From Deltaproteobacteria bacterium (GTDB taxonomy: Bacteria > Myxococcota_A > UBA796 > SXON01), in NCBI GenBank assembly GCA_947445035.1, contig CANFCK010000003.1, positions 168,218 through 232,217 of the forward strand: a stretch of DNA of 64,000 bases. The letters run 5' to 3'. Of this stretch, positions 2,188-43,385 are shown one piece after another. The stretch's first letter is position 1. Every line of letters begins with the position of its first letter. The notes beneath the pieces were generated by a model. The model worked only from the letters and a program-made list of their open reading frames with translations. It made no database searches and had not been told where the DNA came from. Position numbers and translations under genes: made by a program.

Positions 2188-2885
2188 CAGGGCAGGAGCC
2201 ATCCGGCACAACCCGGGCAGGTGTGAACCGCGCGAGCCAGGGTGGTCTCAACGATTCGTTGTCCGGGAATCCGGGTCTGGCAGGTCTGGCACATCTGCTC
2301 GTGCGTGTTGACCAGCGCCGGCCGTTTCCGCTGGCGCTGGTACGCGTAAGCCGACTGGTACTCGGCGGGAACGTCATCGGCGGCGTCAGGGCGGCTTTCC
2401 AGAAGCTCGGTCAGCTCCGCCCGAACGGGACGATCGCGGGTGGCAAGCGCCGTGCGTGCTACGACAAGCGCACGCTTTCCGGACTCGAGTTCCCGTTGTG
2501 CGCTGGCGCGGGCCTCCTCGAGGGCCTCGACCGCCTCCATCAACTCCAACGCGCCGGTTTCCAGCCGATCCACGATCTCCAGAACCTGGGCCAGCTGCTT
2601 TACCGCTGCGGCGTAGTCCGGCGCGGTACCAGTATCGATCATCTTGCCGGTCCGGTCCCGCTTGTCCACGTAATCGGCCAGTTCCCGGTCGTTCTTCCGC
2701 GTTCGCTGGGTCGCGTCGTCGCGCTGTACCGCAATCGCCGAAAGCTGCGCCTCGACCCCCTTCACGGCGGCGTCGGCGGCGCGCACGGCGTTGGCGAGGG
2801 CCTCGTGCTCGGCACGGAGGAGGTCGCACTGGTGATCGATCTGCCAAAGATTCGAGATGAGGACGAGATCAGGATGCAATTCCAC
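2187..2885 (-). CDS. Coiled-coil protein with C4-type zinc ribbon (DUF164/CT398-like)
   Basis: Long coiled coil followed by CQTC...CPGC; usual position downstream of rpoD-tRNA. Confidence 0.85.
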   Translation of the reverse strand: MELHPDLVLISNLWQIDHQCDLLRAEHEALANAVRAADAAVKGVEAQLSAIAVQRDDATQRTRKNDRELADYVDKRDRTGKMIDTGTAPDYAAAVKQLAQVLEIVDRLETGALELMEAVEALEEARASAQRELESGKRALVVARTALATRDRPVRAELTELLESRPDAADDVPAEYQSAYAYQRQRKRPALVNTHEQMCQTCQTRIPGQRIVETTLARAVHTCPGCAGWLLP

Positions 2886-2894
2886 TCCGAAGGG

Positions 2895-2967
2895 TAGGCC
2901 CGGCTGGGGTTGAACCAGCGACCGGGTGGATATAAGCCACCTGCTCTGACCACTGAGCTACGGGCCC
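2895..2967 (-). tRNA. tRNA-Ile, anticodon UAU (Ile2-type body); CCA not encoded
   Basis: Reverse complement folds as a cloverleaf: GGGCCCG/CGGGCCT acceptor stem, GCTC/GAGC D-arm, GGTGG-CTTATAT-CCACC anticodon arm, GCTGG-TTCAACC-CCAGC T-arm, discriminator A73. Confidence 0.95.
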
Positions 2968-2972
2968 GGTTT

Positions 2973-4697
2973 TCAGCCGTCCATGAATGCGCGGAGGCGC
3001 TTACTGCGGCTGTGATGCCGCAACTTCCGCAGCGCCTTCGCCTCTATCTGGCGGATGCGTTCGCGGGTGACGTCGAAGTCCTGGCCGACCTCTTCGAGCG
3101 TGTGGTCCGAGCGTTCCCCGATGCCGAAGCGCATCCGGAGCACCCGTTCTTCCCGCGGCGTCAGCGTGGCGAGCACTTTTCGCGCTTGTTCCACCAGCGC
3201 GCTGTTGGTGACGTTCTCCCCCGGGGAGGGCACCAACTTATCCTCGATGAAATCGCCGAGATGGGAGTCCTCCTCCTCACCGATCGGGGTTTCCAGAGAA
3301 ATGGGCTCTTTGGCGATCTTGAGTATCTTCCGGACCTTGTCGGCCGGCATGTCCATCTTTTCGGCCACTTCTTCGGGTGTGGGCTCGCGTTCGAGCTCCT
3401 GGACCAGGTACCGCTGGGTCCGGATGAGCTTGTTGATCGTCTCGATCATGTGCACGGGGATGCGGATCGTCCGCGCCTGGTCTGCGATGGCACGCGTGAT
3501 CGCTTGGCGAATCCACCACGTGGCATACGTCGAGAACTTGTAGCCGCGCTGGTATTCGAACTTCTCGACCGCCTTCATCAGCCCGATGTTGCCCTCCTGG
3601 ATGAGGTCCAAGAACTGCAGGCCGCGGTTGGTGTACTTCTTGGCGATGCTGACCACGAGGCGAAGGTTGGCCTCGATCAGCTCGTTCTTGGCCACCTCGG
3701 CCAGGTGTTCGCCACGCTTGAGCCGCTGGGCGATGACCCGCAGCTCGTCGGCATCGACGAGCAGGTCTTCTTCGATCTTGCGGATCTTGCGCAGCTCTCG
3801 GCGCACACGACTGTCGAACTCCGCCCACTGCGCCTCGGTAATACCGCTATTCTCGACCAGTTCGCTTCCGCCGCGTTCGGGGGCGCGGCGCACACGACGG
3901 ATGCTTCGCCGAAGTTCGCGGACGGGGGTATTCGCCTCCCGCGCCACAACCTCAATCTCCTTTTCGCAGGCCGCGACGCTGGCCCAGGCCGCGTGGATCT
4001 CCTTGGCCAGATCGTTGAGCACCACGCGCTCGAGCTCCAACCCGTCCATGATCTCGAGAATCTGGAACTCAATCGCGGTGACTTGCGCGGCAGGGGGCAG
4101 CGCAACCGGCTCTGCGCGCGGACGATCGTTTTCTTTGAGGAGCGCCCGTCGGCGCTCCTGAAGCTCCCGCAGTTCGTTGACTACCACATCCAGGGTGCGC
4201 CCAGATTTGGTCTTGACCCGCCGCAGCTTCTTCCCGGCGCGGGTGGCCTTTTCGATGCGCTCGTCCTCGTCGGCGAGCAGCCCAACCGCGATGCGGACAC
4301 CCAAAGGCGAGCCGATCGTATTTTTGCGGATGGCCAGCTCTCCTTCCTCGATGCGCTGCGCGATCTCAATCTCACCATCGCGAGACAACAGCGCTACAGA
4401 ACCCATCTTCCGCAGATACATCCTTACTGGATCGTTGCTACGCCCCGATGGGCTGGTCTCGTTGACCTTCCGTTCTTCAGGTTGGACGCCGCGGCGTTCT
4501 TGCTCCGCACGCCGCTTGGCTTGGTGCACGACCTCAATGTCGAGGTCTGAGAACATGATGTTGATCTCATCGAGGTTCTCATTGGAGATCAGGTGCACGG
4601 GCAAGAGCGTGTTCACCTCGTCCTGGGCAACGAATCCGCGTTCCTTACCCATGGCGATGAGCGCCTGAACCTCCCGCATCTCTTTGTCTTTGAGCAT
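2973..4697 (-). CDS. rpoD: RNA polymerase primary sigma factor RpoD
   Basis: [71 protein letters not shown]; TGATG overlap with dnaG. Confidence 0.98.
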
Positions 4698-6487
4698 CAA
4701 TCCACGACTCCCGCCCTGCGGTTGACCGACTGTTTCAGCCCTGCTTGCTGCGCATACAACACGGATAGCTCACGTACCAATGATCCATAACTTGACTTGT
4801 CGCCAGTTGTCTCGCAACGGTGAATCTCGCGGTTGATCGTGAGTATCCGCGCGTCTACCGACCGCAGCTGTAGTCGCGCGAGGATGGAGCGAGCCGCCGG
4901 AAGTGATGCTTCTAACTTGTAAAGATCTGGGTTTGCCGCCGCAGCCGCCAGGACGCGCGCCAGATCGGGCGCGTCGACTTCCGCCCAGGCGAGGACATCC
5001 GCGAGGGGATGGAGACTCAACAATCGAGCGATTGCGCCCAAAACGTCCGAACGCTCGGAAACCACGCTGGGATCCACCTCCGCGAGGGCGGGGGCAACGC
5101 GATCTGGGTATTGCACCACCAGCCAAAGCAGATGGGCCAGGTCCTTGTCCGGAGCCCAACGGCTCGGCGTGAGCGTTTGAACACTGCTTTCCGGTGGACG
5201 CCCCACTTCTCGAATCAGCTCTTCCTCAGCGATCCCCAGCCACCCGGCCGCACGCCGAATGGTCACGTCGCGAACGGTGCCGACGAGCTTCCGCAGGGTA
5301 GGCGCCAACGCCGCGACAGCACGCCCCCTGCCCTCCGAGCTGCTGCCATGTTTGTCGAGAGTGCGGCGAATGACCAACTCAAGCAGCGGCTCCGTGCGCT
5401 CCAACCGCTCCTCGAAGGCCGGGGCGCCGAACTTCTGCACGAACTCGTCGGGGTCCTTGGCGCCGGGGAGGTCCAGACGTCGGGCCTCGATGCCTGCGGC
5501 GAGAAAGAGGTCGAGCGCACGAACCGCGGCATTGATCCCCGCCTCATCGGTGTCAAAGAGCGCCACGACACGCGTGGTCAGGCGGCGCACGATCTCCAGG
5601 TGCTCCACGGTCAACGACGTACCGCAGGGCGCGACGGCTTCCTCGAACCCGGCCTGCCACAGCGACACCGCGTCGAAGTAGCCCTCGACCACCAGCAGTC
5701 GGTCCTTCCGCTGCACCGCGCTCCTCGCATACGACAAGCCGTAGAGTACCCGCGACTTTTCGTAGATTTCCGTTCCCGGCGAGTTGAGGTACTTGGGAGA
5801 GTCCTTCGGCGCGCCCGGTAAAACTCGGCCGCCAAATGCGATGGGCCGCCCTCGCTCGTCATGAATCGGAAAGAGCAGGCGCCCTCGGAAGACGTCGTAG
5901 GTCGTGCCACGAGCCTCGTGCTTCTTCACCAGCCCGCAGCGCAGCAACAATTCGCTGTCGAAACCCTCCCGCGTCAGGTGTGTTTCCAGGTTGTTCCATC
6001 CTTCTGGGGCGAAGCCAAGTCGGTACTTCTTGGCGGTGTCGAGGCTGATGCCCCGATCCGCCAAATAGGCCCTTCCCGGCGCTCCGTCCTTGCCCACCAG
6101 CAGCGTCGCCTCGTACCAGCGACAAGCGGCCTCGGCGGTCTCGTGGAGGTCCTTCCGCCTGGAAATCCTGGCCTCTTCCTGCGCACTCAGTGCCCGTTCC
6201 TCGATGGTCACCCCAACCTGGGCGGCGAGCTCCTTGACCGCGTCCATGAAGCCTACCCCCCGCGTCTTCTGCAAGAACGTGAACACGTCCCCGCCCGCCC
6301 CGCAGCCGAAGCAATGGTAGATCTGTTTGGAGGGGACGACGTTGAAGCTGCCGGTCTTCTCGTTGTGGAAGGGGCATAATCCGACGTGGCTGGTCCCGCG
6401 ACGCCGCAGGGTCACCGTCTGCCCGATGACCTGCACGATGTCGGTGCGCGCCCGCACTTCGTCGACCACATGCCTCGGAATCGACAT
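4697..6487 (-). CDS. dnaG: DNA primase
   Basis: CPFHNEKT...CFGC zinc-binding domain, FGGR, KYLNSP, VVEGYFD, FDTDEAG, KDPDE. Confidence 0.98.
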
Positions 6488-7899: not shown

Positions 7900-10800
7900 A
7901 TGAAAAAGCAAGCGCCGTGCCAGCCTGAAAGCGATAAATCGGGGACCGTGCCCGTACTCGCCTTCAGGCCTCGGTACCGGGGGGCCGACCTCCGCGTCGT
8001 CGATCTCTCGACTGTAAGCCTCAAGGGCCAGGATCTGGCCGGGTGCGATCTGCGCGGCGTAGACTTGAGCCGTCGCGATCTCTCCGGCGCCGACCTCAGC
8101 GACGCCCGGCTCGACGGCGCGACGCTCGTCGACGCCGAGTTCCGGGACACCGTTCTCAACGGAACGAACCTGACCGATGCGGACGCCCGCGGAGCGCGCT
8201 TCGACCGAAGCCGCGGCGCGGACCTGATCGCGACGGCGCTCGACGCCCGCGGGGCCTCCTTTCGTGGCGTCGAGTGGCCGCGATGCCGGCTGTCCTCGGC
8301 TCGGCTCGGCGGCGCTCGTTTCGGTGGGGCGAGACTTGACGGCAGCGACCTCGAGGGCGCGTCGCTCGTGGGCAGCGAACTTCGGCGGGCGGTCCTCGAC
8401 GACGCCGCACTCGAAGGCGCAGACCTGAGCCAGATCGCCGGGCTTGGCCTCGCCCTGGCAGGGGCCCACGGGCGCTTTCGACTTGTCGGCGCCGATCTGC
8501 GGGGGAGTGACCTGCGGGGCATCGCCCTCTTGGAGTTCGAGCTCGATGACGCCCGACTCGACGGGGCGACGGTAGACCGACAGCTCTCCCGACAATCTCC
8601 GGGGCGGCTCCGCGCCCTGGGTTGGTCACCGCCGATGCTCGGCCGCGCGCTTTCCCCCCTCCGCGAGGGCGGTCGATTCCCAACGCACGTCGCGGCGTGG
8701 CTCGACGGTTGGCGAGCGGCACGTCCGAGCGAAGCGGACGCCCGCCCCGACGACGAAGAAGCCCGCGAGCCGGACGACGACGTCATCGAAGACGCCTTCG
8801 CTGGGGACACCTTCCGTCGTGAGCGAGAGATCGCCCGACGGGCCTGGGCTCGCGAAGCGTCGGCGCGTTCGCGCGCGGCGGTCCTGCGCCCCCCCGACCG
8901 CGTCGTGCCCAGGCTGCCAATCCCCGCCGCGCCCGTGCCCGCTGCCACGCAGCGTCTGGGCACCCCGACGCTTGCCCCCAGCGAGTTCCTCGACGCCTTC
9001 CGAGACGGGGCTGCGGCGCGCGATGCAGTCGTCGCTGACGCTGCGCTCACGCGTGAGCTCCGGGCCCGAGCGGACGTCCGCCGGCGAGCGGCAGCGGCCA
9101 TTCGGGAGACGGCGAACGCTGCCCTCCGCCGGGAAAGTGAGCGGCTCCGGGCCGCCGAGGAGGCCGCGGCTCTGGCGTGGCACCAACGGCAAGAGGCGCT
9201 GCGACTCGCGGAGGCGGAGGCCCTCCAAACGGCGGCCGCTCGCGGCGCGGCCGAGGCCGATCGCGCCGCCTTGGCGCGATCGTCGCAGGTGGCGGCATCG
9301 CGTGCCGCCGAGGTGAAGGGTGCCGCGGCATCGCGTGCCGCCGAGGTGGAGCGGGATTTTGGCGACAGCGCGGGCGCAAGGGACGCGGAGCCTCCCGCCC
9401 CGGTCGTGGCCCCGGCGCCGCAGGCGATCGATCCGCCGCCGGCTCAGGAGCGCCGCGCGCGCGCCATCGCCCAGCTCATCCGCTCCGCGTCTGATCAAAC
9501 GCAGGGACGGCGCAAGCTCCTCTACCAGCTAGATGCGGCAGAGGCCCAGGAGCGCGCGCGCCGAGACGAGCAGGACCTCGCGGCGGCAAGCCCAGGCCTC
9601 TCGCCCACCCGCAGGAGTGCCGTCGGCCCGGGGGCCGTGCTCGCCGCGGCGAGACGCGTGCTCAGCGCCGCTGGTCGACAGGTAGGCAACTTCGTAGAGC
9701 AGGCAGCGGGCGCTAGCATGCGCGTCGGCCGGGGCGCGCCGACGGCAGCCGCCGACTTCGCCGGCGCCGCGACCCGCACGCTGGCTGAATTCAGGCGCCT
9801 TTTCGACACCCTGGCGGCGCCCGTCGTTCCCGCCGAACCCGGAGGGACGACCGAGGACGAACGCATTCTCAGGATCCTGCGCGGGACCGAGGACGAACGC
9901 ATTCTCAGGATCCTGCGCGGGGGGGAGTCGGCCTCCGCCGCGCCGACGGGGCCCGCTTGGGGCACCGAGAGCCGCGCGCGGCTTCGCGCGTTGGCCCGCC
10001 GCGCGCAGGGGCGCGCGCGCAACGCCTCGTTCCCAGGCAGGGTCTATTTCGGGACGATCGCAGGGCTCTCGGCCATCGCCGGGCGCATCGCCCAGCTCCC
10101 CACCTGGACGTGGTCGACGGCGGCACGCGCCGGGAACGCCGCGCTCGCCCTCACGGTGACGGTCGCGACAGGCGCCATCGCGCTAGCCATCGCTGTGGGC
10201 CACGGCGTGCGGATCGGGGCGCCGAGGCTCGCCGCAGCGTCCGATGTCTGGCTTTGGACCCCGCTGAACCACGCCATTCGGCGGGCGGCGCCGGCTCTCC
10301 GTGACGTCCTTGACCGGGCGGAGGTGGGCGAGGCGGAGCCGGAGCCAACGGGCGAGCCCGACACCGTCGCGCAAAAGCGCCGCGTGGAGTCGCAACGCCG
10401 TCGCGCGGCAGAGATGGCCCGACTCGACGAGCTCCGGACGACAACGGCGCAGCGCGCTGACGAGCTGATTCGTACCGCGAGAGCGGTGGCGCTGGCCGCC
10501 CGTGCAGGGCTGGGTCCCGCCGTGGACGCCGCGCTGGAGCCCCTCGCCCTGATCGTGGCACCGATGGTGAGCCGGTTCCAGAGCCTTCGCTCTCTCACCA
10601 CCGGCGAAAACCTTCGGAGCGCGTCCCTGTGGCTCTGGGGAGCGGACGAGGACGCACGGGTGCTGCGGGCGACCGTAGAGGACGGCCTGGAGTTCGCGAG
10701 ACGGTCGGAAGAGCGCACCCGGACCCACAGCTACTTGGGCGGCGCGCGCTACGTGGGCGTCTTGGGCGCCGTGCGGGCGTCGGCGAGAGAACGTGAGGCC

Positions 10801-13800
10801 GGCGGCGCGGTTTTTCTTCCCCACGTCATGCGCCGCGAAGCCGCATTCGTGACCCGCGGCCGGCGAGACGCCACCGACGCCATCGCCGTGGCCAGACTCC
10901 TCCGCGCCGAGGAGGCCCAAGCTTCGGTGGAGCTGCTCGTCGCCGACCGCCAACGCGGCGAGGTCTCGGCGCGACGGGCCCTGGCCGACGAGGTCCGCCG
11001 CGCACAGCTGGCGCGTGAGACCGAGCGGCGCCGGCGCCGGGAGGAGGCCGAGCTCGACCGGCTACGCACGGACGCGGAGGCCCTTGAGGATCGCGCCGAG
11101 CGCATCGTGTCACAGGAGCGATCGGATACCGCCGATGGTGTCGATACAGCGCTGCTCCGGGAGCTACGCGCCCGCCTGGAAGAGCGCCAGCGGGCCGTCC
11201 GGGAGCAGGCCGAGCGGGTCGCCGCGGCGCGCGACGCGCAAAGCGCCTCCGAGGCCGAAGCGGCGGCTCAGCGGCGGCGCCGCGTGCTGGCGGCGCTGAG
11301 CGTGGGCGTGGGCCGCTTCCGCCGCCGACTGACCCCGGAGCCGATCGACGCCCGGCCGGGAGCCGATCTGTCCGGGCAGTCCTTCGACGAGCGCGATCTC
11401 GCCGGTGTCGATCTGCGCGCCGCGCAACTCCGACGCTCGACGTTCGTCGGCGCCGACCTCCGGCGCGCGGACCTGCGGGACGCGGACCTGACCGAGTCCG
11501 ATTTCACGGGCGCCAGGCTCGAGGGCGCGCGCTTCGACGGCGCCTGCTTGGATGGGGCCGTGCTCGACCAGATCCTCGTCACCGGGGCGACCTTTGCCAA
11601 TGTGCGCGCCGCCGGCGCGCAACTGGGCGCCGTTCGCGGGCTGTCCGCGGAGGGTAGGCAGGCGCTGGTCGGCGGCGGCGCCCAGACCCCGACCGCGGCC
11701 GAGTCTGGCGGCGGTCGTCTCGCCCTCGGCGCGGTGCTCCTCACCATCGCCGTCGGCGGTGGGTTCTACGCCTACGGCCAGTTCGGCCCTCGCGCCCTGG
11801 ACGCCGCGGCGCTCGAACAGGCAGCCGCCGAAGCAAGGCAGTCCGGGCGCTCCGGTGACGCCGCTGACGCCTTCCGCCGGCTCTCCGAGCAAGCCGTCGA
11901 CCTCCAGAGTCGCGTGGACTACCTGCTCGAAGGCGCGGTCTCGGCGGAGGAGGCCAACGACCGCGCGCGTACCCTCTCGCTGCTCGAGGAAGCGATCGAG
12001 GCCGCCGGCGACACTCAGGACTTCCCCCGCGTGCTGCTTGCGCGGGCAGATGTCTGGCAACGGCTCGGCCTGGACAGTCGCGCGGCAACGGAGTTCGAGG
12101 CGCTTCTGGCGCGCAGGGACATCTCGCCCGACCAGGCTGCGGCCTCGGTCGTGGGACTCCACAACGCGCTGCGCGATGGCGGTCAGACGGCGGGACGATT
12201 CCAGGAGAAACGCCTTTTCGCCCTGGCCACCGACCCCGAACGTTGCGCCTTCGCCCTTGCCCTCGCCGACGCCTGGGCCGCCGCCGACCTGCCGCTTCCG
12301 GCGAAGGCGGCGCTCGAAGCCGCCCTCGCCTCCATTGAGAGCCCACCGGAGCGGGCGGAGGTGCAGCTACGGCTGGCACGAGCCACTGCGGAGGGCGGCG
12401 AACTGGACGCGGGCCTGGCCCTGTACGCGGCGCTGGACGGCTCCACCCGCGAAGAGGACGCACGCCTGGGCGCGGCAGAGCTGCTGGAGCGGGCCGGACG
12501 TGGCGAAGAAGCCAGGGCGATGCTCACTCCGCTCTTGAGCGCCTCGGCGGCGGATGTCCGGGCGCGGGCTCACCTTGCCCTGGCGACGACCGCCGAGCGC
12601 GCCGGGCAGAACGAGGTCGCCATGGACCATGTGCGCGAGGCGCTTGCCATCGGCGGCGTACCGCCCGCGATCTCGGATGGCGCTCGCATCCTCCTCGCCC
12701 GGCTGGATCCCAGCGCCGTGGAGGACCTGGTGGCGGAGCACCCAGGCCTCGCGACCCAGCTGCTCTTGGGGCGGGCTCAGGCGCTGCGGGAAGCGGGGGA
12801 GCGCAGCGACGCTCGCGCGATCTGGGTCAAGGTGGCGGAGGACGCGAGTACGACGCCCGAAGCCCGCGTGGAGGCGACGCTGGCCATCGCCGAACTACAG
12901 GTCGACGACGGCGACATGGAAGGCGCGATCCGCCGCTACGACGCGCTTTTGGCCGGGGCGCTGGTCGACCGCGACACCCGAGTTCGCGTCAGCCTTGGCC
13001 GCAGCCAGGCCCTGCTCCGGTCCAACCGCGTCCAGGAGGCGGAAGCGGCCTACATCGCGCTATTGGCGGGGGCCTCCGCGGAGGTGGAGGCGCAATGTCG
13101 CCTGGGACTGGCCAACGCGAAGGAGCTGCGGGGTCAGGCCGCGGCGGCGGCTGAGCTGTACCAGATGGTCGGGCGCGGGCAGGGACCCTGGGCGCTGGAG
13201 GCGCTGCTGTCGCTGGGCCGGCTCCGCGAAACAGGCGGCGACCTGCCGAGCGCGATCGAGGCCTACCGCCTTGCCCGGGGCCGACCTGGAGCCGAGGCCA
13301 GCCGCCGCACGGCTGCCGATCTCGCGTTGGCCCAGGCGCTCGACGCCAGCGGGGACGCGGCTGGCGCCGCCACCGTGTATGCGGCGCTCATCGAGGCCCC
13401 CGACACCGGCATCCGGGTGCAGGCCCGCATCGCAGTCGCCGAAGCCCGGCTCGCAGCGGATCCCGCGGCGGCGCGTGCGCTGCTCGACTCGGCGCTGGCG
13501 GAGGCGACTGCGGGCCCCGAGCAGAACGCAGCAAGAGCGCTCTGGGTGCGGGCATCGGTCGCCGTCGGCGATGCCGCAGGGGCGCGCAGCCGGCTGGACG
13601 CGTGGCTGGCAACCGATGGCGACCGCGGCTCCCGCGATGAACTGGTGGCTGCCTCCATCCGCGCGCTGCGCGCCGAGGGCGAAATCGATGCGGCTGCGGA
13701 GGTTGCCACGCGGTGGGCCGACGTCGGCTTCGAAGCTGGCATGGAGGGGGCGCTGAGCTTGCGGGAGGCGGGGCGGACTGCGGAAGCGGTGCGGGTGCTC

Positions 13801-14586
13801 AAAGACCTGGAGCCAGAGGGCGTCGACGACCGCCGCTGGCGGGACGAGGTGTACGCCGAGCTGCTCGTCGAGGCCGACGATCTGGACGCTGCGGACGAGG
13901 TGTGGGCGCGCTTGCAGCGGTCCGATCCCGACGCGGCGTACCTGGGCCGCGCGCGGATTGCCCGTATGCGCGGCGAGCCTGAGCGCGCACTGACCCTGCT
14001 CGCCGACACGCGGGACGCCCGCGCCGCGGAGGAGCGCGGACTCGCCTACGAAGCGCTGGAGCGGTGGGACGAGGCGCTCTCGGCCTACGCGTCCATGGCG
14101 TCTTCCGCCGATGTCGAGCGACGCTCGGCGGCGCACGTCGGGCAGGCGCGGGTGTGGCTGGCGCGGGAGGACGCCCGGGCGGCGCTATCCGCCCTCGCGC
14201 AGCTCTCGGTCGTCGACCCTGGCTACACCCTGACGGTGGGTCAACTCAAGGGTGATGCGTTGGTGGCGCTCAAACGTTTCGACGAGGCGCGTGACGTCTA
14301 CGCCTCGCTCGACGGGGACGCAGAGTCGCGGACGGTCGGCGCCTTGGGGCTTGGCGAATGCGCCCTTGCCGCCGGAGACCCGCGCACTGCCGTCACCCGC
14401 TTCGGCGACGCGTTGCGCGAAACGAGCGACCGCTACTACCAGGCCGACGCCATCGCTGGCCTGGTCCGGGCGTTTCACGAAGCGGGTCGCGGCGAACAGG
14501 CGCTGGCGCAGTTCGAGACGCTCAAGGACGGCTACCCCGAGCGCCCCGACGCCATCGCCCGCGCCCAGGCCGCGCTCAACGAGTGA
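7900..14586 (+). CDS. Giant pentapeptide-repeat / coiled-coil / transmembrane / TPR-solenoid protein (2228 aa)
   Basis: A(D/R)LxG pentapeptide blocks near the N-terminus and at about aa 1150-1250; hydrophobic helix LALGAVLLTIAVGGGFYAY; about 900 aa of TPR-like Ala/Leu helical repeats. Confidence 0.85.
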   Translation: MKKQAPCQPESDKSGTVPVLAFRPRYRGADLRVVDLSTVSLKGQDLAGCDLRGVDLSRRDLSGADLSDARLDGATLVDAEFRDTVLNGTNLTDADARGARFDRSRGADLIATALDARGASFRGVEWPRCRLSSARLGGARFGGARLDGSDLEGASLVGSELRRAVLDDAALEGADLSQIAGLGLALAGAHGRFRLVGADLRGSDLRGIALLEFELDDARLDGATVDRQLSRQSPGRLRALGWSPPMLGRALSPLREGGRFPTHVAAWLDGWRAARPSEADARPDDEEAREPDDDVIEDAFAGDTFRREREIARRAWAREASARSRAAVLRPPDRVVPRLPIPAAPVPAATQRLGTPTLAPSEFLDAFRDGAAARDAVVADAALTRELRARADVRRRAAAAIRETANAALRRESERLRAAEEAAALAWHQRQEALRLAEAEALQTAAARGAAEADRAALARSSQVAASRAAEVKGAAASRAAEVERDFGDSAGARDAEPPAPVVAPAPQAIDPPPAQERRARAIAQLIRSASDQTQGRRKLLYQLDAAEAQERARRDEQDLAAASPGLSPTRRSAVGPGAVLAAARRVLSAAGRQVGNFVEQAAGASMRVGRGAPTAAADFAGAATRTLAEFRRLFDTLAAPVVPAEPGGTTEDERILRILRGTEDERILRILRGGESASAAPTGPAWGTESRARLRALARRAQGRARNASFPGRVYFGTIAGLSAIAGRIAQLPTWTWSTAARAGNAALALTVTVATGAIALAIAVGHGVRIGAPRLAAASDVWLWTPLNHAIRRAAPALRDVLDRAEVGEAEPEPTGEPDTVAQKRRVESQRRRAAEMARLDELRTTTAQRADELIRTARAVALAARAGLGPAVDAALEPLALIVAPMVSRFQSLRSLTTGENLRSASLWLWGADEDARVLRATVEDGLEFARRSEERTRTHSYLGGARYVGVLGAVRASAREREAGGAVFLPHVMRREAAFVTRGRRDATDAIAVARLLRAEEAQASVELLVADRQRGEVSARRALADEVRRAQLARETERRRRREEAELDRLRTDAEALEDRAERIVSQERSDTADGVDTALLRELRARLEERQRAVREQAERVAAARDAQSASEAEAAAQRRRRVLAALSVGVGRFRRRLTPEPIDARPGADLSGQSFDERDLAGVDLRAAQLRRSTFVGADLRRADLRDADLTESDFTGARLEGARFDGACLDGAVLDQILVTGATFANVRAAGAQLGAVRGLSAEGRQALVGGGAQTPTAAESGGGRLALGAVLLTIAVGGGFYAYGQFGPRALDAAALEQAAAEARQSGRSGDAADAFRRLSEQAVDLQSRVDYLLEGAVSAEEANDRARTLSLLEEAIEAAGDTQDFPRVLLARADVWQRLGLDSRAATEFEALLARRDISPDQAAASVVGLHNALRDGGQTAGRFQEKRLFALATDPERCAFALALADAWAAADLPLPAKAALEAALASIESPPERAEVQLRLARATAEGGELDAGLALYAALDGSTREEDARLGAAELLERAGRGEEARAMLTPLLSASAADVRARAHLALATTAERAGQNEVAMDHVREALAIGGVPPAISDGARILLARLDPSAVEDLVAEHPGLATQLLLGRAQALREAGERSDARAIWVKVAEDASTTPEARVEATLAIAELQVDDGDMEGAIRRYDALLAGALVDRDTRVRVSLGRSQALLRSNRVQEAEAAYIALLAGASAEVEAQCRLGLANAKELRGQAAAAAELYQMVGRGQGPWALEALLSLGRLRETGGDLPSAIEAYRLARGRPGAEASRRTAADLALAQALDASGDAAGAATVYAALIEAPDTGIRVQARIAVAEARLAADPAAARALLDSALAEATAGPEQNAARALWVRASVAVGDAAGARSRLDAWLATDGDRGSRDELVAASIRALRAEGEIDAAAEVATRWADVGFEAGMEGALSLREAGRTAEAVRVLKDLEPEGVDDRRWRDEVYAELLVEADDLDAADEVWARLQRSDPDAAYLGRARIARMRGEPERALTLLADTRDARAAEERGLAYEALERWDEALSAYASMASSADVERRSAAHVGQARVWLAREDARAALSALAQLSVVDPGYTLTVGQLKGDALVALKRFDEARDVYASLDGDAESRTVGALGLGECALAAGDPRTAVTRFGDALRETSDRYYQADAIAGLVRAFHEAGRGEQALAQFETLKDGYPERPDAIARAQAALNE
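9292..9348 (+). repeat. 24-bp direct repeat (period 33) encoding AASRAAEV twice
   Basis: gcggcatcgcgtgccgccgaggtg at 9292-9315 and 9325-9348. Confidence 0.9.
9850..9921 (+). repeat. Perfect 36-bp tandem duplication encoding TEDERILRILRG twice
   Basis: accgaggacgaacgcattctcaggatcctgcgcggg at 9850-9885 and 9886-9921. Confidence 0.95.
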
Positions 14587-37415: not shown

Positions 37416-38816
37416 TCAGAATTGAAAGTAGTAGAAGTCGCGCGCTTCGACGGCGTACAACGAAACCAATCCGCCGACTACCGCGATCAAGAGCGCCAAG
37501 GCCGCCGGACTCGCGGAACGAGCGTTGGCGAGAACGCGCTCCTTCCAGCCGCGTGGGCTCAGATGCAAGAGGATGACGCCGACCAGGAACAGCGCCGCGG
37601 TTGGATCCCAGAGGCCGCCCGCCGCTCGCCCGAACGAAAACAGGCTCCGCAACGCTTCGCCGAGCCGATCCAGCGGGATCGGCCGCAGCGCCATGACGCT
37701 CAGCGCGGTGAGTTGGAACGCAAACAAGCTCTCCAACACCAGCGCCCCCCCGCGCCCGGGCTCCGGCCGGACCAGCCTCCAGGACGCCGCCAAAACCCCG
37801 TTCCACAAGCCCATGAGCACATAGGAAGCGCCCACACCGTGCCACACGCCCGAAACGAAGAACACGAGGAACAGGTTGAACCACAGCCGACCCCGGCCGG
37901 CCCGTGAGCCGCCGAGCGGAAAATACAGGTAGTCCCGCAAGAAGGAGCCGAGGGTCATGTGCCAGCGGCGCCAGTGTTCCAACGGGCTCGGCGCGAAGGC
38001 CGGGCGGTCGAAGTTGACCGGGAGCACGATGCCGAAGAGCAGCGCGGAACCGATGGCGATGTCGGTGTACCCAGAGAAGTCGCAGTACAACGAGAAGTAG
38101 GCCGCCCAGTCCGCGAGCCAGGCTTCTGCTGCATTGTAGCGGCTGGGATTGGCGAAGAAGGGGTCCACCAGCGCCCGCCCGATGGTGTCACCCAACACCA
38201 ACTTCTTGACCATGCCGATGCTGATGAGCATGAGCCCCTGGCCAATCGCGCCCGCGTCGCGCCGGGGCGGCGCAGCGATCTGCGGCAGAAACTCCGACGC
38301 GCGAACGATCGGGCCGGCAACGAGCTGAGGAAAGAACGAGACGAAGTGAAAGAACTCCAGCAGGTTCCGCGCCGGCGCGATCTGGCGCCGGTACACATCG
38401 ATCGAATAGCTGAGGGTCTGAAAACTATAGAAGCTGATGCCGATCGGGAGCCCGATCCCCAAACGTGGGAGGGTGACGCTGAACCCAAGCAGCCTACACA
38501 ACGCCTCGACCGACTCCAGGAGAAAATCGCCGTACTTGAACACCCCAAGCATGCCCAGGTTGCCAACGATGCTGACACCCAAGAGACGTTTGCGTATATT
38601 GGGGCGATCTTCCCGACCCAAAAGCGAGCCGACCGCGTAGTCCAGCACGGTCGCCGCACCGAGGAGAATCAGGTAGCGAAGGTCGAAGCTCCCGTAAAAG
38701 CTAAGGCTGGCAACCGTCAACCACAAGACCGCGAACCAGGTGCGCCCCTTCAGCGCCCGAAAGACCACCCACACCACGGCCAGGAAGATCACATACTGGA
38801 GGTCGGTGAACCGCAT
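37416..38816 (-). CDS. MBOAT O-acyltransferase (AlgI/DltB-like) ending in FYYFQF
   Basis: LPIGISFYSFQ, FFPQLVAGPI, YCDFSGYTDIA, WRRWHMTL, SGVWHG. Confidence 0.95.
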   Translation of the reverse strand: MRFTDLQYVIFLAVVWVVFRALKGRTWFAVLWLTVASLSFYGSFDLRYLILLGAATVLDYAVGSLLGREDRPNIRKRLLGVSIVGNLGMLGVFKYGDFLLESVEALCRLLGFSVTLPRLGIGLPIGISFYSFQTLSYSIDVYRRQIAPARNLLEFFHFVSFFPQLVAGPIVRASEFLPQIAAPPRRDAGAIGQGLMLISIGMVKKLVLGDTIGRALVDPFFANPSRYNAAEAWLADWAAYFSLYCDFSGYTDIAIGSALLFGIVLPVNFDRPAFAPSPLEHWRRWHMTLGSFLRDYLYFPLGGSRAGRGRLWFNLFLVFFVSGVWHGVGASYVLMGLWNGVLAASWRLVRPEPGRGGALVLESLFAFQLTALSVMALRPIPLDRLGEALRSLFSFGRAAGGLWDPTAALFLVGVILLHLSPRGWKERVLANARSASPAALALLIAVVGGLVSLYAVEARDFYYFQF

Positions 38817-41412: not shown

Positions 41413-41781
41413 GTGCTCCTGTTACCCCTCTTCAGCGCCCTCGCGGCCTTGCCCACCGAAGAAGAGCTGTTCCGCGCCGTCGTGGTGCGCATCGACCGCG
41501 ACGGCAACGGTTCCGTCTCGCGCGGGGAGTACGTCCGCTTGGACACGACCGAGACTTTTTCCCGCATCGACGCCGATCAAGACGGAGTGGCCACCGCGGG
41601 CGAGTTGGCTGACTGGGCGCGCAGCCAACAGCCGCGCCCAGCCGAACGCACACGACCCGACACGCCCGGCTTCGCCCCGCTGACGCGTCAGATTCCGCCG
41701 CCCCCGAAGGGTTGTGCCCACGCCCCAATCCACCCCATCGCACCTCTGGCCGTCCTCCTCCTGGTCAGGAGGCGCCGATGA
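41413..41781 (+). CDS. Small EF-hand protein with MYXO-CTERM-like tail
   Basis: DRDGNGSVSRGE, DADQDGVATAGE; GC...PLAVLLLVRRRR C-terminus. Confidence 0.8.
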   Translation: MLLLPLFSALAALPTEEELFRAVVVRIDRDGNGSVSRGEYVRLDTTETFSRIDADQDGVATAGELADWARSQQPRPAERTRPDTPGFAPLTRQIPPPPKGCAHAPIHPIAPLAVLLLVRRRR

Positions 41782-43385
41782 TCAGCCTGTTTTTGGCCTG
41801 CAGCGAGCCACCCGTCCCAGTGCGCCCAAAAAACGCCCATCCCAACGTGCTCCTGATCAGCGTGGACACCCTCCGTGCCGACCACACGAGCGCCTACGGA
41901 TACGCGCGCGACACCACTCCGGTCCTCGACGCGCTCGCCGCTGAAGGAACGCGTTTCGACCTCGCGTTCAGCCAAGCCAACGAGAGCGCGTGGTCGCACG
42001 CCGCGCTCTTGACGGGCCGCTACGCCTCCGAGCTGGCGTCACCCGTTTACGCGACCTACGCCATCCCGACCGACGTCACCCTGGTTTCCGAGGCGCTCTC
42101 CGCCTATGGGTACGCTACCGCCGCCTTTTCAGCAGGGGGTCACGTCACCGCCGACTTCGGCTACGACCAGGGCTGGGACCTGTGGTCGGCCGAGCCCGGT
42201 TTTGGTTCTTTTTTCGACACCGGGCCCAAGGCGATCGACTGGGTCTCCAAGGTGCCGTCCGACAAACCCTGGTTCGCGTTTCTTCACGGCTACGACGCAC
42301 ACCGCCCGTACACGCGGCCCGGGCCGTGGAATCACCTCTACGCTGGCGGCGAAGGCTCCCCGCTGGCGGAAGCCCTGTGCAAGAATCCCTGCATCTCGGA
42401 GATGGTGCTCGGCGATGCCCTCTTGTTGGACGTCGTCCCCTCGTGGTTCGCCCACACCGGCGGGGACAACATCCTCGACCCCGAGAGCTACACCCGACTG
42501 GCGGCTGCCGCCCCGGACGCGCGCCGCGTAGCCGTGACCGCGGCCGACAAGCAGCACGTGCAGGATCACTACGATGGCGCCGTGCGCTATGCGGACACGA
42601 TGCTGGGGCTTACGCTTACGCGGCTAAAAGCGCTCGGTGCGCTCGATGACACCGTGGTCATCGTCTTGTCGGACCACGGCGAGGACCTGCTCGACCACGG
42701 GTACATGAACCACCGGACGGGTTTGTTCGACTCGTGCACGCGCGTCCCCCTGGTGGTGTGGGGGCCGGGTTTTTCCGAAGGCGGCGTCGCTCCGGGGCTC
42801 GTGGACGGCCGCGATGTGGCGGCGACGATTCTGTCGGTGGCCGGCGCCTTGCCGCCAGCAGGCAGCGGCGGCCGGGACCTCCGTGCCGTGGCGCGGGGGG
42901 AACTTCCGGCCGACGCGGTGTTTGCCGAAGGGGTGATGGACATGCTCAGCGTACGCACCACGACACATCGTCTCGTCGCCAAGAATATATCCCTCATCGA
43001 TCCTGGGCTCGCTGCGAGCCTGGCCGCGGAACCACTCGAGAGTTCAAAGTTCGAACTCTATGATCTGCGCTCTGACCCCGGAGAGCACACCGACATCCAC
43101 TGGGAGGACCCCGCGACGACTGATACACTGCGTGGCCGGCTGGTGGACTGGCGAAGAAGTATCACCGTGGGTCAAAATGTATTGAGCCAGGATCAAGTGT
43201 CACCCGAGGTCGCCGCCGAGCTGCGCAAGCATGGGTATTGGGAGGTTCCGGGCGGGCACCCGGCGGCGCCAGCCGCGGTGCCGACGCATGGGACCGCGGT
43301 GGGGAATCCACCCGAGGGGAGCACGCCCCGGCCTCAGCAGAAGGACGCCGCCTGCAACGAAAGGTTTCAGTTCGCGCCGGGGTGA
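41778..43385 (+). CDS. Sulfatase-superfamily lipoprotein
   Basis: PNVLLISVDTLRADH, YDAHRPY, YDGAVRYAD, SDHGE, ELYDLRSDPGE; lipobox FLAC. Confidence 0.9.
   Translation: MISLFLACSEPPVPVRPKNAHPNVLLISVDTLRADHTSAYGYARDTTPVLDALAAEGTRFDLAFSQANESAWSHAALLTGRYASELASPVYATYAIPTDVTLVSEALSAYGYATAAFSAGGHVTADFGYDQGWDLWSAEPGFGSFFDTGPKAIDWVSKVPSDKPWFAFLHGYDAHRPYTRPGPWNHLYAGGEGSPLAEALCKNPCISEMVLGDALLLDVVPSWFAHTGGDNILDPESYTRLAAAAPDARRVAVTAADKQHVQDHYDGAVRYADTMLGLTLTRLKALGALDDTVVIVLSDHGEDLLDHGYMNHRTGLFDSCTRVPLVVWGPGFSEGGVAPGLVDGRDVAATILSVAGALPPAGSGGRDLRAVARGELPADAVFAEGVMDMLSVRTTTHRLVAKNISLIDPGLAASLAAEPLESSKFELYDLRSDPGEHTDIHWEDPATTDTLRGRLVDWRRSITVGQNVLSQDQVSPEVAAELRKHGYWEVPGGHPAAPAAVPTHGTAVGNPPEGSTPRPQQKDAACNERFQFAPG

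Follow-up and report, generated by a model that had tools for sequence, protein, structure and literature searches.

Bacteria commonly read the isoleucine codon AUA with tRNA-Ile2(CAU), whose wobble base is converted to lysidine by TilS. Diwan and Agashe (2018) found this enzyme in 98.18% of the bacteria that they surveyed and regard it as the one evolutionarily stable wobble-modification enzyme (PMC6063277); the exceptions named in a 2026 review are only Mycoplasma mobile and a Bacillus subtilis mutant (PMC13602947). A tRNA-Ile that carries the anticodon UAU in its gene was counted by Taniguchi et al. (2013) in nine species belonging to three clades (PMC3575796), and the tRNAscan-SE 2.0 survey reports it from 17 of 4036 bacterial genomes, all of them Bifidobacterium, Mycoplasma or Neorickettsia (PMC8450103). 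The present work concerns such a tRNA-Ile(UAU) gene in a 64,000-nucleotide (nt) stretch of contig CANFCK010000003.1 (hereafter the window) from an uncultured bacterium that most likely belongs to the Myxococcota rather than to the Proteobacteria in their present sense. A preliminary description of the window had proposed that this gene sits where tRNA-Ile2(CAU) is normally found and that the lineage may decode AUA without TilS. The comparison of the locus across related genomes supports both ideas and extends them to a whole bacterial family.

The system resembles several described ones without being identical to any. In tilS-less Bifidobacterium and Neorickettsia an encoded UAU replaces the CAU/lysidine pair and the isoleucyl-tRNA synthetase (IleRS) is of the eukaryotic type (type 2), devoid of the zinc-binding domain; eukaryotic substrates of this enzyme include UAU-type tRNA (PMC3575796). 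The lineage described here shares these properties, but it belongs to another phylum and has an independent origin, AUA is rare in it, and the switch maps to the rpoD-linked tRNA-Ile2 locus of a family that has TilS-bearing sisters on both sides. Its members are uncultured freshwater bacteria with genomes of 4-9 Mb and 68% G+C. M. mobile has likewise lost TilS and reads AUA as isoleucine with an Ile2-type tRNA bearing UAU (PMC3575796). Its IleRS, however, is of type 1 and owes its specificity for UAU to a Trp-to-Arg change in the zinc-binding domain (Arg865, corresponding to W905 of Escherichia coli; PMC3575796), a residue that has no counterpart in the type-2 enzymes of the present lineage, which lack this domain. 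M. mobile also has a reduced, AT-rich genome, and its unmodified U34 and the rejection of AUG by its ribosome are experimental results. The suppressor of a tilS deletion in B. subtilis again replaces TilS by an isoleucine tRNA with U34, demonstrating that the transition is possible by a single mutation and with low misreading of AUG (PMC3919564). It differs from the present case in being a laboratory mutant that arose from tRNA-Ile1 (GAU to UAU) rather than from tRNA-Ile2, and in having a type-1 IleRS. Finally, in the eukaryotic cytoplasm a type-2 IleRS serves a minor tRNA-Ile of the UAU type for AUA; the anticodon of that tRNA is pseudouridine-A-pseudouridine and relies on pseudouridines 34 and 36 (PMC3575796). 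The kind of system is known already and the lineage is new: no report of TilS loss or of tRNA-Ile(UAU) in Myxococcota or Chloroflexota was found in a literature search whose incomplete coverage leaves room for a prior mention. What sets the lineage apart is the combination of ordinary-sized, high-G+C genomes of free-living bacteria, a very low use of AUA and a family-wide single origin at a known locus.

ARAGORN identifies one tRNA in the window, a tRNA-Ile with anticodon tat on the minus strand (2893-2967). The Rfam model RF00005 matches 2967-2895 from end to end (positions 1-71 of 71) with 67.3 bits (E 1.8e-12; gathering score 29), upholding the intact cloverleaf that had been proposed, and our own covariance model R1 scores the gene at 100.3 bits. 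The tRNA has the canonical length of 73 nt and its CCA end is not encoded. Its acceptor stem is composed of the pairs G1-U72, G2-C71, G3-C70, C4-G69, C5-G68, C6-G67 and G7-C66, with A73 as discriminator; it has the pair U12-A23, and its anticodon loop reads C32 U33 U34 A35 U36 A37 U38. The pairs, the discriminator, U38 and the loop letters given in the preliminary description are all there, on the minus strand. The coordinates that it assigned to the anticodon are also right, because the plus-strand ATA at 2932-2934 is the reverse complement of the anticodon; only the strand had been omitted.

The anticodon does not vary among independent sequences of the same stretch, which are contigs rather than reads. 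Three contigs cover positions 2600-3075 with no difference, one of 1099 nt from a DNA run of another study and one from each of two metatranscriptome libraries (553 and 537 nt). The variants listed near the tRNA, found in contigs of related strains, are restricted to positions 2923, 2924 and 2927 and leave 2932-2934 untouched. The public runs that contain the stretch are labelled lake-water or freshwater metagenomes.

The same anticodon is found throughout the family (f1), which comprises 33 species-level genomes including the one that holds the window, all of them draft metagenome-assembled genomes (MAGs) that are 75-96% complete. A covariance model built from 24 orthologs, used with a match threshold of E 1e-19 or better, detects exactly one orthologous tRNA in 29 of the 33 genomes (89.9-101 bits), including all 13 of high quality, and every one of the 29 is read as TAT by ARAGORN; the four genomes without an ortholog are 75-86% complete. 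Twenty public records with the same tRNA body also carry TAT. The recurrence of TAT in 29 separately assembled family genomes and in contigs of other runs rules out both an assembly error and a mutation confined to one genome, two outcomes that had been left to be checked: none of the close relatives with the gene has CAT at this place.

In the sister families of the same order the best relatives of the window tRNA are Ile2-type tRNAs with anticodon CAU (body GGGCC[C/U][A/G]...), present in 14 of 16 genomes; lower-ranked tRNA matches, checked in ten of these genomes, include none with TAT. BLAST identity between the window tRNA and the sister CAU tRNAs is 73-78%, and a joint covariance model scores the CAU orthologs at 84-93 bits against at most 81 bits for elongator-Met tRNAs. 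Wherever a CAU locus of the class is long enough to examine (12 of 12), the gene rpoD lies directly upstream, as it does for the UAU tRNA in 20 of the 28 family loci examined. Outside the family a homolog of the 232-residue open reading frame (ORF) that follows the window tRNA is often found downstream of the CAU tRNA as well. This shared order of rpoD, tRNA and ORF bears out the earlier statement that the rpoD-linked locus is the normal place of tRNA-Ile2(CAU). Judged by position and sequence, the window tRNA is the ortholog of the tRNA-Ile2(CAU) of the sister families.

Quick trees, computed without bootstraps, group the family as one clade both for RpoD (Shimodaira-Hasegawa approximate likelihood-ratio support 99, with families f5-f7 as nearest neighbours) and within the vertical lineage of IleRS. 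A single C-to-T change suffices because the family is one clade on both trees, and such a change at position 34 on the family stem, in place and without duplication, would explain the data. No intermediate bearing both decoding systems was seen among the genomes examined.

The counterpart of this change is the apparent disappearance of TilS. In the genome that holds the window, a 5.27-Mb draft of 60 contigs with 68% G+C and a rated completeness of 92%, the best match to TIGR02432, the model of the TilS N-domain, reaches 22 bits and is LarE (285 bits to TIGR00268). PF01171, the general PP-loop model, has no match there above its cut-off and matches in 14 of 14 control genomes, and tblastn with four TilS proteins of sister families gives nothing below E 0.01. 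Over the family as a whole, TilS exceeds the cut-off in none of the 31 genomes tested. It does so in 14 of the 16 genomes of six sister families of the order and in 106 of 110 genomes of the rest of the class (at least 85% complete; E 1e-10 or better). When the phylum was sampled evenly (genomes at least 90% complete; E 1e-20 or better), 378 of 388 genomes outside the family had a TilS match and 0 of 13 within it. Seven of the 10 outside genomes without TilS were examined: five carry an ordinary Ile2-type CAU tRNA, so that TilS is probably just unassembled in them, and the other two are the f44 genomes described below.

The substrate of TilS was not found in the family either. At the threshold given above, none of the 33 family genomes has a second Ile2-like tRNA, and the next-best CAU matches, checked in 13 family genomes and in the window's own genome, are all of the elongator-Met type. 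ARAGORN lists 45 tRNAs in the latter genome, two of them with a CAU anticodon. The first, recognisable by a C1xA72 mismatch and by three G-C pairs in its anticodon stem, is an initiator; the second belongs to the elongator-Met type (GGCUUCG..., U4-A69, U5-A68); there is no third that could be a separate tRNA-Ile2(CAU) among the 45. The two checks proposed earlier, for tilS and for a separate Ile2-CAU gene, thus both come out negative, and with TAT family-wide they support the idea that AUA is decoded in this lineage without TilS. The same list contains two tRNA-SeC(tca) genes.

AUA is still in use. The window's own genome has 752 AUA codons in 3213 ORFs filtered by the G+C content of third codon positions (GC3), that is 0.54 per 1000 codons and 1.6% of isoleucine codons, making AUA the second-rarest sense codon. 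Both examples cited in the preliminary description are genuine: the codon at 42987-42989 is in frame in a GC3-rich ORF of the plus strand (41613-43385) and that at 38595-38597 in a GC3-rich ORF of the minus strand (37416-38816). Two further AUA codons lie in rpoD itself, at residues 459 and 552 (Table 1), which are isoleucine in all 18 family orthologs and all 11 outside orthologs. The codon for residue 552 is ATC (26) or ATT (3) in the 29 other orthologs; on this alignment AUA arose there recently, as a synonymous change in a gene that is essential and in a genome that lacks TilS. Paralogs provide a second view of the meaning of the codon. The residues opposite 92 AUA sites are V (0.25), L (0.17), I (0.16) and M (0.04), compared with I (0.27), V (0.25), L (0.16) and M (0.02) at ATC sites and M (0.24) and L (0.23) at ATG sites, so that the AUA profile resembles that of ATC/ATT sites and is unlike that of ATG sites. 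As far as codon alignments can tell, AUA is read as isoleucine in this family. A disappearance of AUA codons was considered as a driver of the switch and rejected, the frequency in the compared loci being 0.51 per 1000 in the family and 0.52 in the TilS-bearing sister families.

The genome encodes a single IleRS, about 4 kb away from tRNA-Ile(UAU) and outside the window (Table 1). It has the C-terminal domain PF19302 and no zinc finger, and its best match in the PDB is IleRS2 of Priestia megaterium. The order holds three IleRS lineages, all of type 2, all with PF19302 and none with a zinc finger: a vertical lineage shared by most of the family with families f2, f3, f4 and f6, a xenologous one in the window's genome and a few relatives (G003, G007, G023, G028), and a third that is confined to families f6 and f7. 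The vertical type-2 enzyme is present in further species of the genus to which the window's genome belongs (G001, G009, G010, G011), so that ileS was replaced within the genus. TilS-bearing and TilS-less genomes have the same class of enzyme. In an alignment of 33 sequences, where 15 family members of the vertical lineage were set against 10 TilS-bearing ones, only 5 columns separate the two groups; none of them lies in the PF19302 domain and the xenologous IleRS of the window's genome does not have them. For the adapted IleRS that had been suggested as one way to avoid misreading of AUG, this alignment gives no sign: it reveals no lineage-specific change in the C-terminal anticodon-binding domain. 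Because nearly half of bacteria use IleRS2 (PMC13752280), the type-2 enzyme is better seen as a permissive background than as a cause; because the order already had it, no special change of the synthetase would have been needed.

Searches beyond the family revealed other lineages with an encoded UAU anticodon. A second family of the phylum, f44, is represented in the sample by two genomes only (G242 = L178 and G374 = L180; 93-96% complete), which give no TilS match and have a tRNA-Ile(UAU), with A38 or C38, and a type-2 IleRS; from these sequences f44 looks like a second, independent loss of TilS in the phylum. Together with three genomes of other phyla, they make up five further UAU-bearing genomes, all of which have the type-2 C-terminal domain; no IleRS-sized frame in them contains a zinc finger, and the three from other phyla gave no TilS match. 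Thirteen records titled Chloroflexota (Limnocylindria type and others) carry a tRNA-Ile(UAU) with G1-U72 (loci L131, L133, L140, L146, L149, L154, L156, L161, L163, L164, L166 and L168), and matches also come from the Candidate Phyla Radiation (CPR; loci L155 and L167). The D-arm and anticodon arm of the Chloroflexota tRNAs are almost identical to those of the family, and their acceptor and T stems differ. TilS was found in none of three such Chloroflexota genomes and neither of two CPR genomes tested, all of unknown completeness. Four public MAG records titled Klebsiella pneumoniae or Enterobacteriaceae (L136, L138, L143, L158) contain the tRNA of the family on DNA of 63-74% G+C; their titles look wrong.

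In the anticodon loop, the preliminary description had stressed U38 in place of the usual A38, which is locally true: of the 14 sister CAU orthologs nine have A38, five have C38 and none has U38, and in the 29 family orthologs the base is U or C (Table 1), never A. Within these alignments the family is fixed for a pyrimidine at this position. The idea that a UAU anticodon requires U38 is ruled out by the C38 of three family genomes and, as a general rule, by the f44 tRNAs, which have A38 and C38; the U38 of the Chloroflexota and CPR matches is uninformative because the search pattern required a pyrimidine there. The pseudouridine synthase TruA is encoded in the window's genome (173 bits) and, considering its known specificity, U38 is probably converted to pseudouridine. 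G1-U72 is present in several sister CAU tRNAs too and C4-G69 is common to them; by this comparison both are inherited from the CAU ancestor rather than specific to the UAU form. As an observation of its own, the tRNA 2-thiocytidine(32) synthetase TtcA, which belongs to the same PP-loop family as TilS, is over the cut-off in 0 of 25 family genomes and in 11 of 16 sister genomes; one sister-family copy that was checked has 427 bits to NF007972.

We consider the following course of events highly probable as a whole. In the ancestor of the family the wobble base of the rpoD-linked tRNA-Ile2 would have changed in place from C to T. The resulting tRNA-Ile(UAU) would pair with AUA directly and would thereby have removed the need for TilS and for the CAU form, neither of which is now detected in the family. 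The tRNA would be transcribed together with dnaG and rpoD, as suggested by the 5 nt between the rpoD stop codon and the tRNA 5' end and by RNA-library contigs that bridge them, then processed and provided with CCA after transcription. It is predicted to be charged with isoleucine by the type-2 ('eukaryote-like') IleRS, the enzyme class of the whole order. AUA would remain a rare isoleucine codon. For AUG, we favour the view, by analogy with M. mobile and the B. subtilis suppressor, that misreading is low because a U34 devoid of an xm5-type modification would pair weakly with G, with competition from tRNA-Met and a retuned loop (C32, a pyrimidine at 38 and probably a TruA-made pseudouridine-38) contributing.

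A number of observations weigh against this course of events and feed the rival ones. Every single absence is weak, the genomes being drafts, and the case rests for that reason on the contrast between many genomes. The tRNA set of the window's own genome is visibly incomplete: its sole Ile(GAU) call, 94 nt long and located on contig 7, is a false positive, and the genuine tRNA-Ile(GAU) is not in the assembly. ARAGORN lists no tRNA there for Asp(GTC), Trp(CCA), Val(TAC) or Ala(TGC), and the false GAU call together with the missing Ala(UGC) call indicates that the tRNAs of the rRNA operons are probably unassembled. Moreover, one family member (G002, 80% complete) has a 199-residue TilS fragment that matches positions 96-186 of the hidden Markov model with 89.6 bits and lacks the ATP-binding PP-loop. 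It lies on contig 32 (locus L105, 632-1231, minus strand) immediately downstream of a VgrG-like gene that contains a Gly-Ser repeat, and its neighbours are 89-94% identical to the start of contig 21 of the window's genome, which ends there; a relic, an acquired fragment and an assembly chimera are all conceivable. It could thus be imagined that TilS and tRNA-Ile2(CAU) are present and were missed owing to gaps or divergence, the UAU tRNA being a redundant second decoder of AUA as in Lactobacillus casei or Cyanothece, since bacteria with both systems are described (PMC3575796). This is very improbable given that the same method separates the family from the rest of the phylum sample so sharply, that PF01171 fails too, and that the CAU gene is not randomly missing, its locus being present and reading TAT with no second Ile2-like tRNA elsewhere. 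An artefact of assembly or binning, or a mutation private to one genome, has no observation in its favour, would be harder still to reconcile with 29 separate assemblies, 20 public records and the contigs of other studies, and can practically be dismissed. An unassigned AUA, or one reassigned for instance to methionine, with a tRNA that is not an isoleucine acceptor, has slightly more room than an artefact and less than a missed TilS. AUA is very rare, and the identity of a tRNA is unprovable from its gene. The invariant isoleucines of RpoD for which relatives use ATC/ATT, the low share of methionine at AUA sites of paralogs and the equal use of AUA in TilS-bearing sisters argue strongly against it. 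So does the tRNA itself, which retains A73, C4-G69, U12-A23 and A37 as in tRNA-Ile2 and has lost C34, on which MetRS depends. Among the points against the scheme above, an ortholog test of the meaning of AUA outside rpoD is small and noisy (24 aligned cells, including two duplicates: 10 Ile, 5 Leu, 4 Val, 1 Met and 4 other). With respect to expression, the RNA-library contigs are compatible with a dnaG-rpoD-tRNA co-transcript; as presence in these libraries is known from contigs alone, DNA carry-over may account for it, and the mature tRNA, its ends and its level are beyond what they can tell.

The most serious rival accepts the switch as described and holds that discrimination against AUG needs a modification of U34, similar to pseudouridine-34, of the xm5U type or of another kind. 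We regard it as a real, though the less probable, possibility. The window's genome encodes MnmG (602 bits), MnmA (304 bits) and, with 210 bits against a cut-off of 252.6, a probable MnmE, so that a modified U34 is quite possible, another point against the scheme above. A haloarchaeal tRNA-Ile2 mutated to U34 becomes modified (Kohrer et al. 2014, PMC3919564), and Taniguchi et al. raised the same possibility for Mycoplasma suis (PMC3575796). However, this modified haloarchaeal tRNA also binds AUG, the unwanted outcome (PMC3919564), and U34 is unmodified in the two bacterial cases that were analysed chemically: in M. mobile discrimination against AUG depends on its own ribosome (PMC3575796), and the B. 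subtilis suppressor tRNA binds AUA far more strongly than AUG (PMC3919564). A wider and more speculative proposal, which we find rather unlikely in its full form, is that the in-place change of C34 to U34 in tRNA-Ile2 is a recurrent and easy route to TilS loss in free-living bacteria with a type-2 IleRS, candidates being this family, the second family of the phylum, Limnocylindria-type Chloroflexota and CPR bacteria. In that case the accuracy at AUG would be achieved here by the retuned loop (C32, a fixed pyrimidine or pseudouridine at 38 and perhaps the absence of TtcA) and not by wobble modification.

The genes around the tRNA are compiled with the other features in Table 1. The 232-residue ORF starts 10 nt past the 3' end of the tRNA, and tblastn synteny places its homologs behind the tRNA in UAU and CAU lineages alike, so that it is not specific to the switch. 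Apart from this gene cluster, the first part of the window contains a plus-strand ORF of 2228 residues (7900-14586) that far exceeds all others there in length.

Table 1. Features of the tRNA-Ile(UAU) locus and of the genes connected with it (window coordinates unless a contig is named).
Feature	Position	Strand	Evidence or remark
tRNA-Ile, gene-encoded UAU anticodon	2895-2967	minus	ARAGORN, Rfam RF00005, family orthologs
Anticodon U34 A35 U36 (plus-strand ATA)	2932-2934	minus	Direct reading; unvaried in contigs of 4 runs
Position 38, U	2930	minus	Alignments: U in 26 and C in 3 of 29 family orthologs
rpoD (primary sigma factor)	2973-4700	minus	NCBIfam NF004208 RpoD equivalog, 650 bits (cut-off 555)
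dnaG (primase), upstream of rpoD, same direction	4697-6487	minus	TIGR01391, 419.9 bits (cut-off 283.6)
Conserved 232-aa coiled-coil protein (CT398-like)	2187-2885	minus	Pfam PF24481, 31.1 bits; tblastn synteny
THUMP-domain RNA methyltransferase (RlmKL/Trm14-like), next downstream gene	1060-2211	minus	PF01170, 126.6 bits, with THUMP and RlmL_1st (NCBIfam, Pfam)
AUA codon, RpoD residue 552, Ile of region-4.2 motif R-I-R-Q-I-E	3045-3047	minus	Ortholog alignment
AUA codon, RpoD residue 459, invariant Ile	3324-3326	minus	Ortholog alignment
Only IleRS of the genome, type 2	Contig 3, 163636-166971 (L066:3636-6971); just outside the window, 1.2-4.6 kb before its start		PF19302

TilS is treated as essential, and here it would have been replaced throughout a family of free-living, high-G+C bacteria that is represented by 33 species-level genomes of ordinary size. 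Such genomes will be misjudged wherever annotation pipelines expect Ile2-CAU or completeness is scored by counting TilS, and the universality of the enzyme is not safe to assume in antibacterial ideas directed at it. Should the accuracy at AUG indeed be ensured by the retuned loop, the family would offer a third, RNA-structure-based answer to the AUA/AUG problem, in a normal-sized bacterium. At any rate the family would represent a natural experiment in which a decoding system was swapped without a change of the code, and which may reveal what limits the U34-G wobble at AUG; the states before and after the swap are found at one locus, and TilS-bearing sister families are available for comparison.

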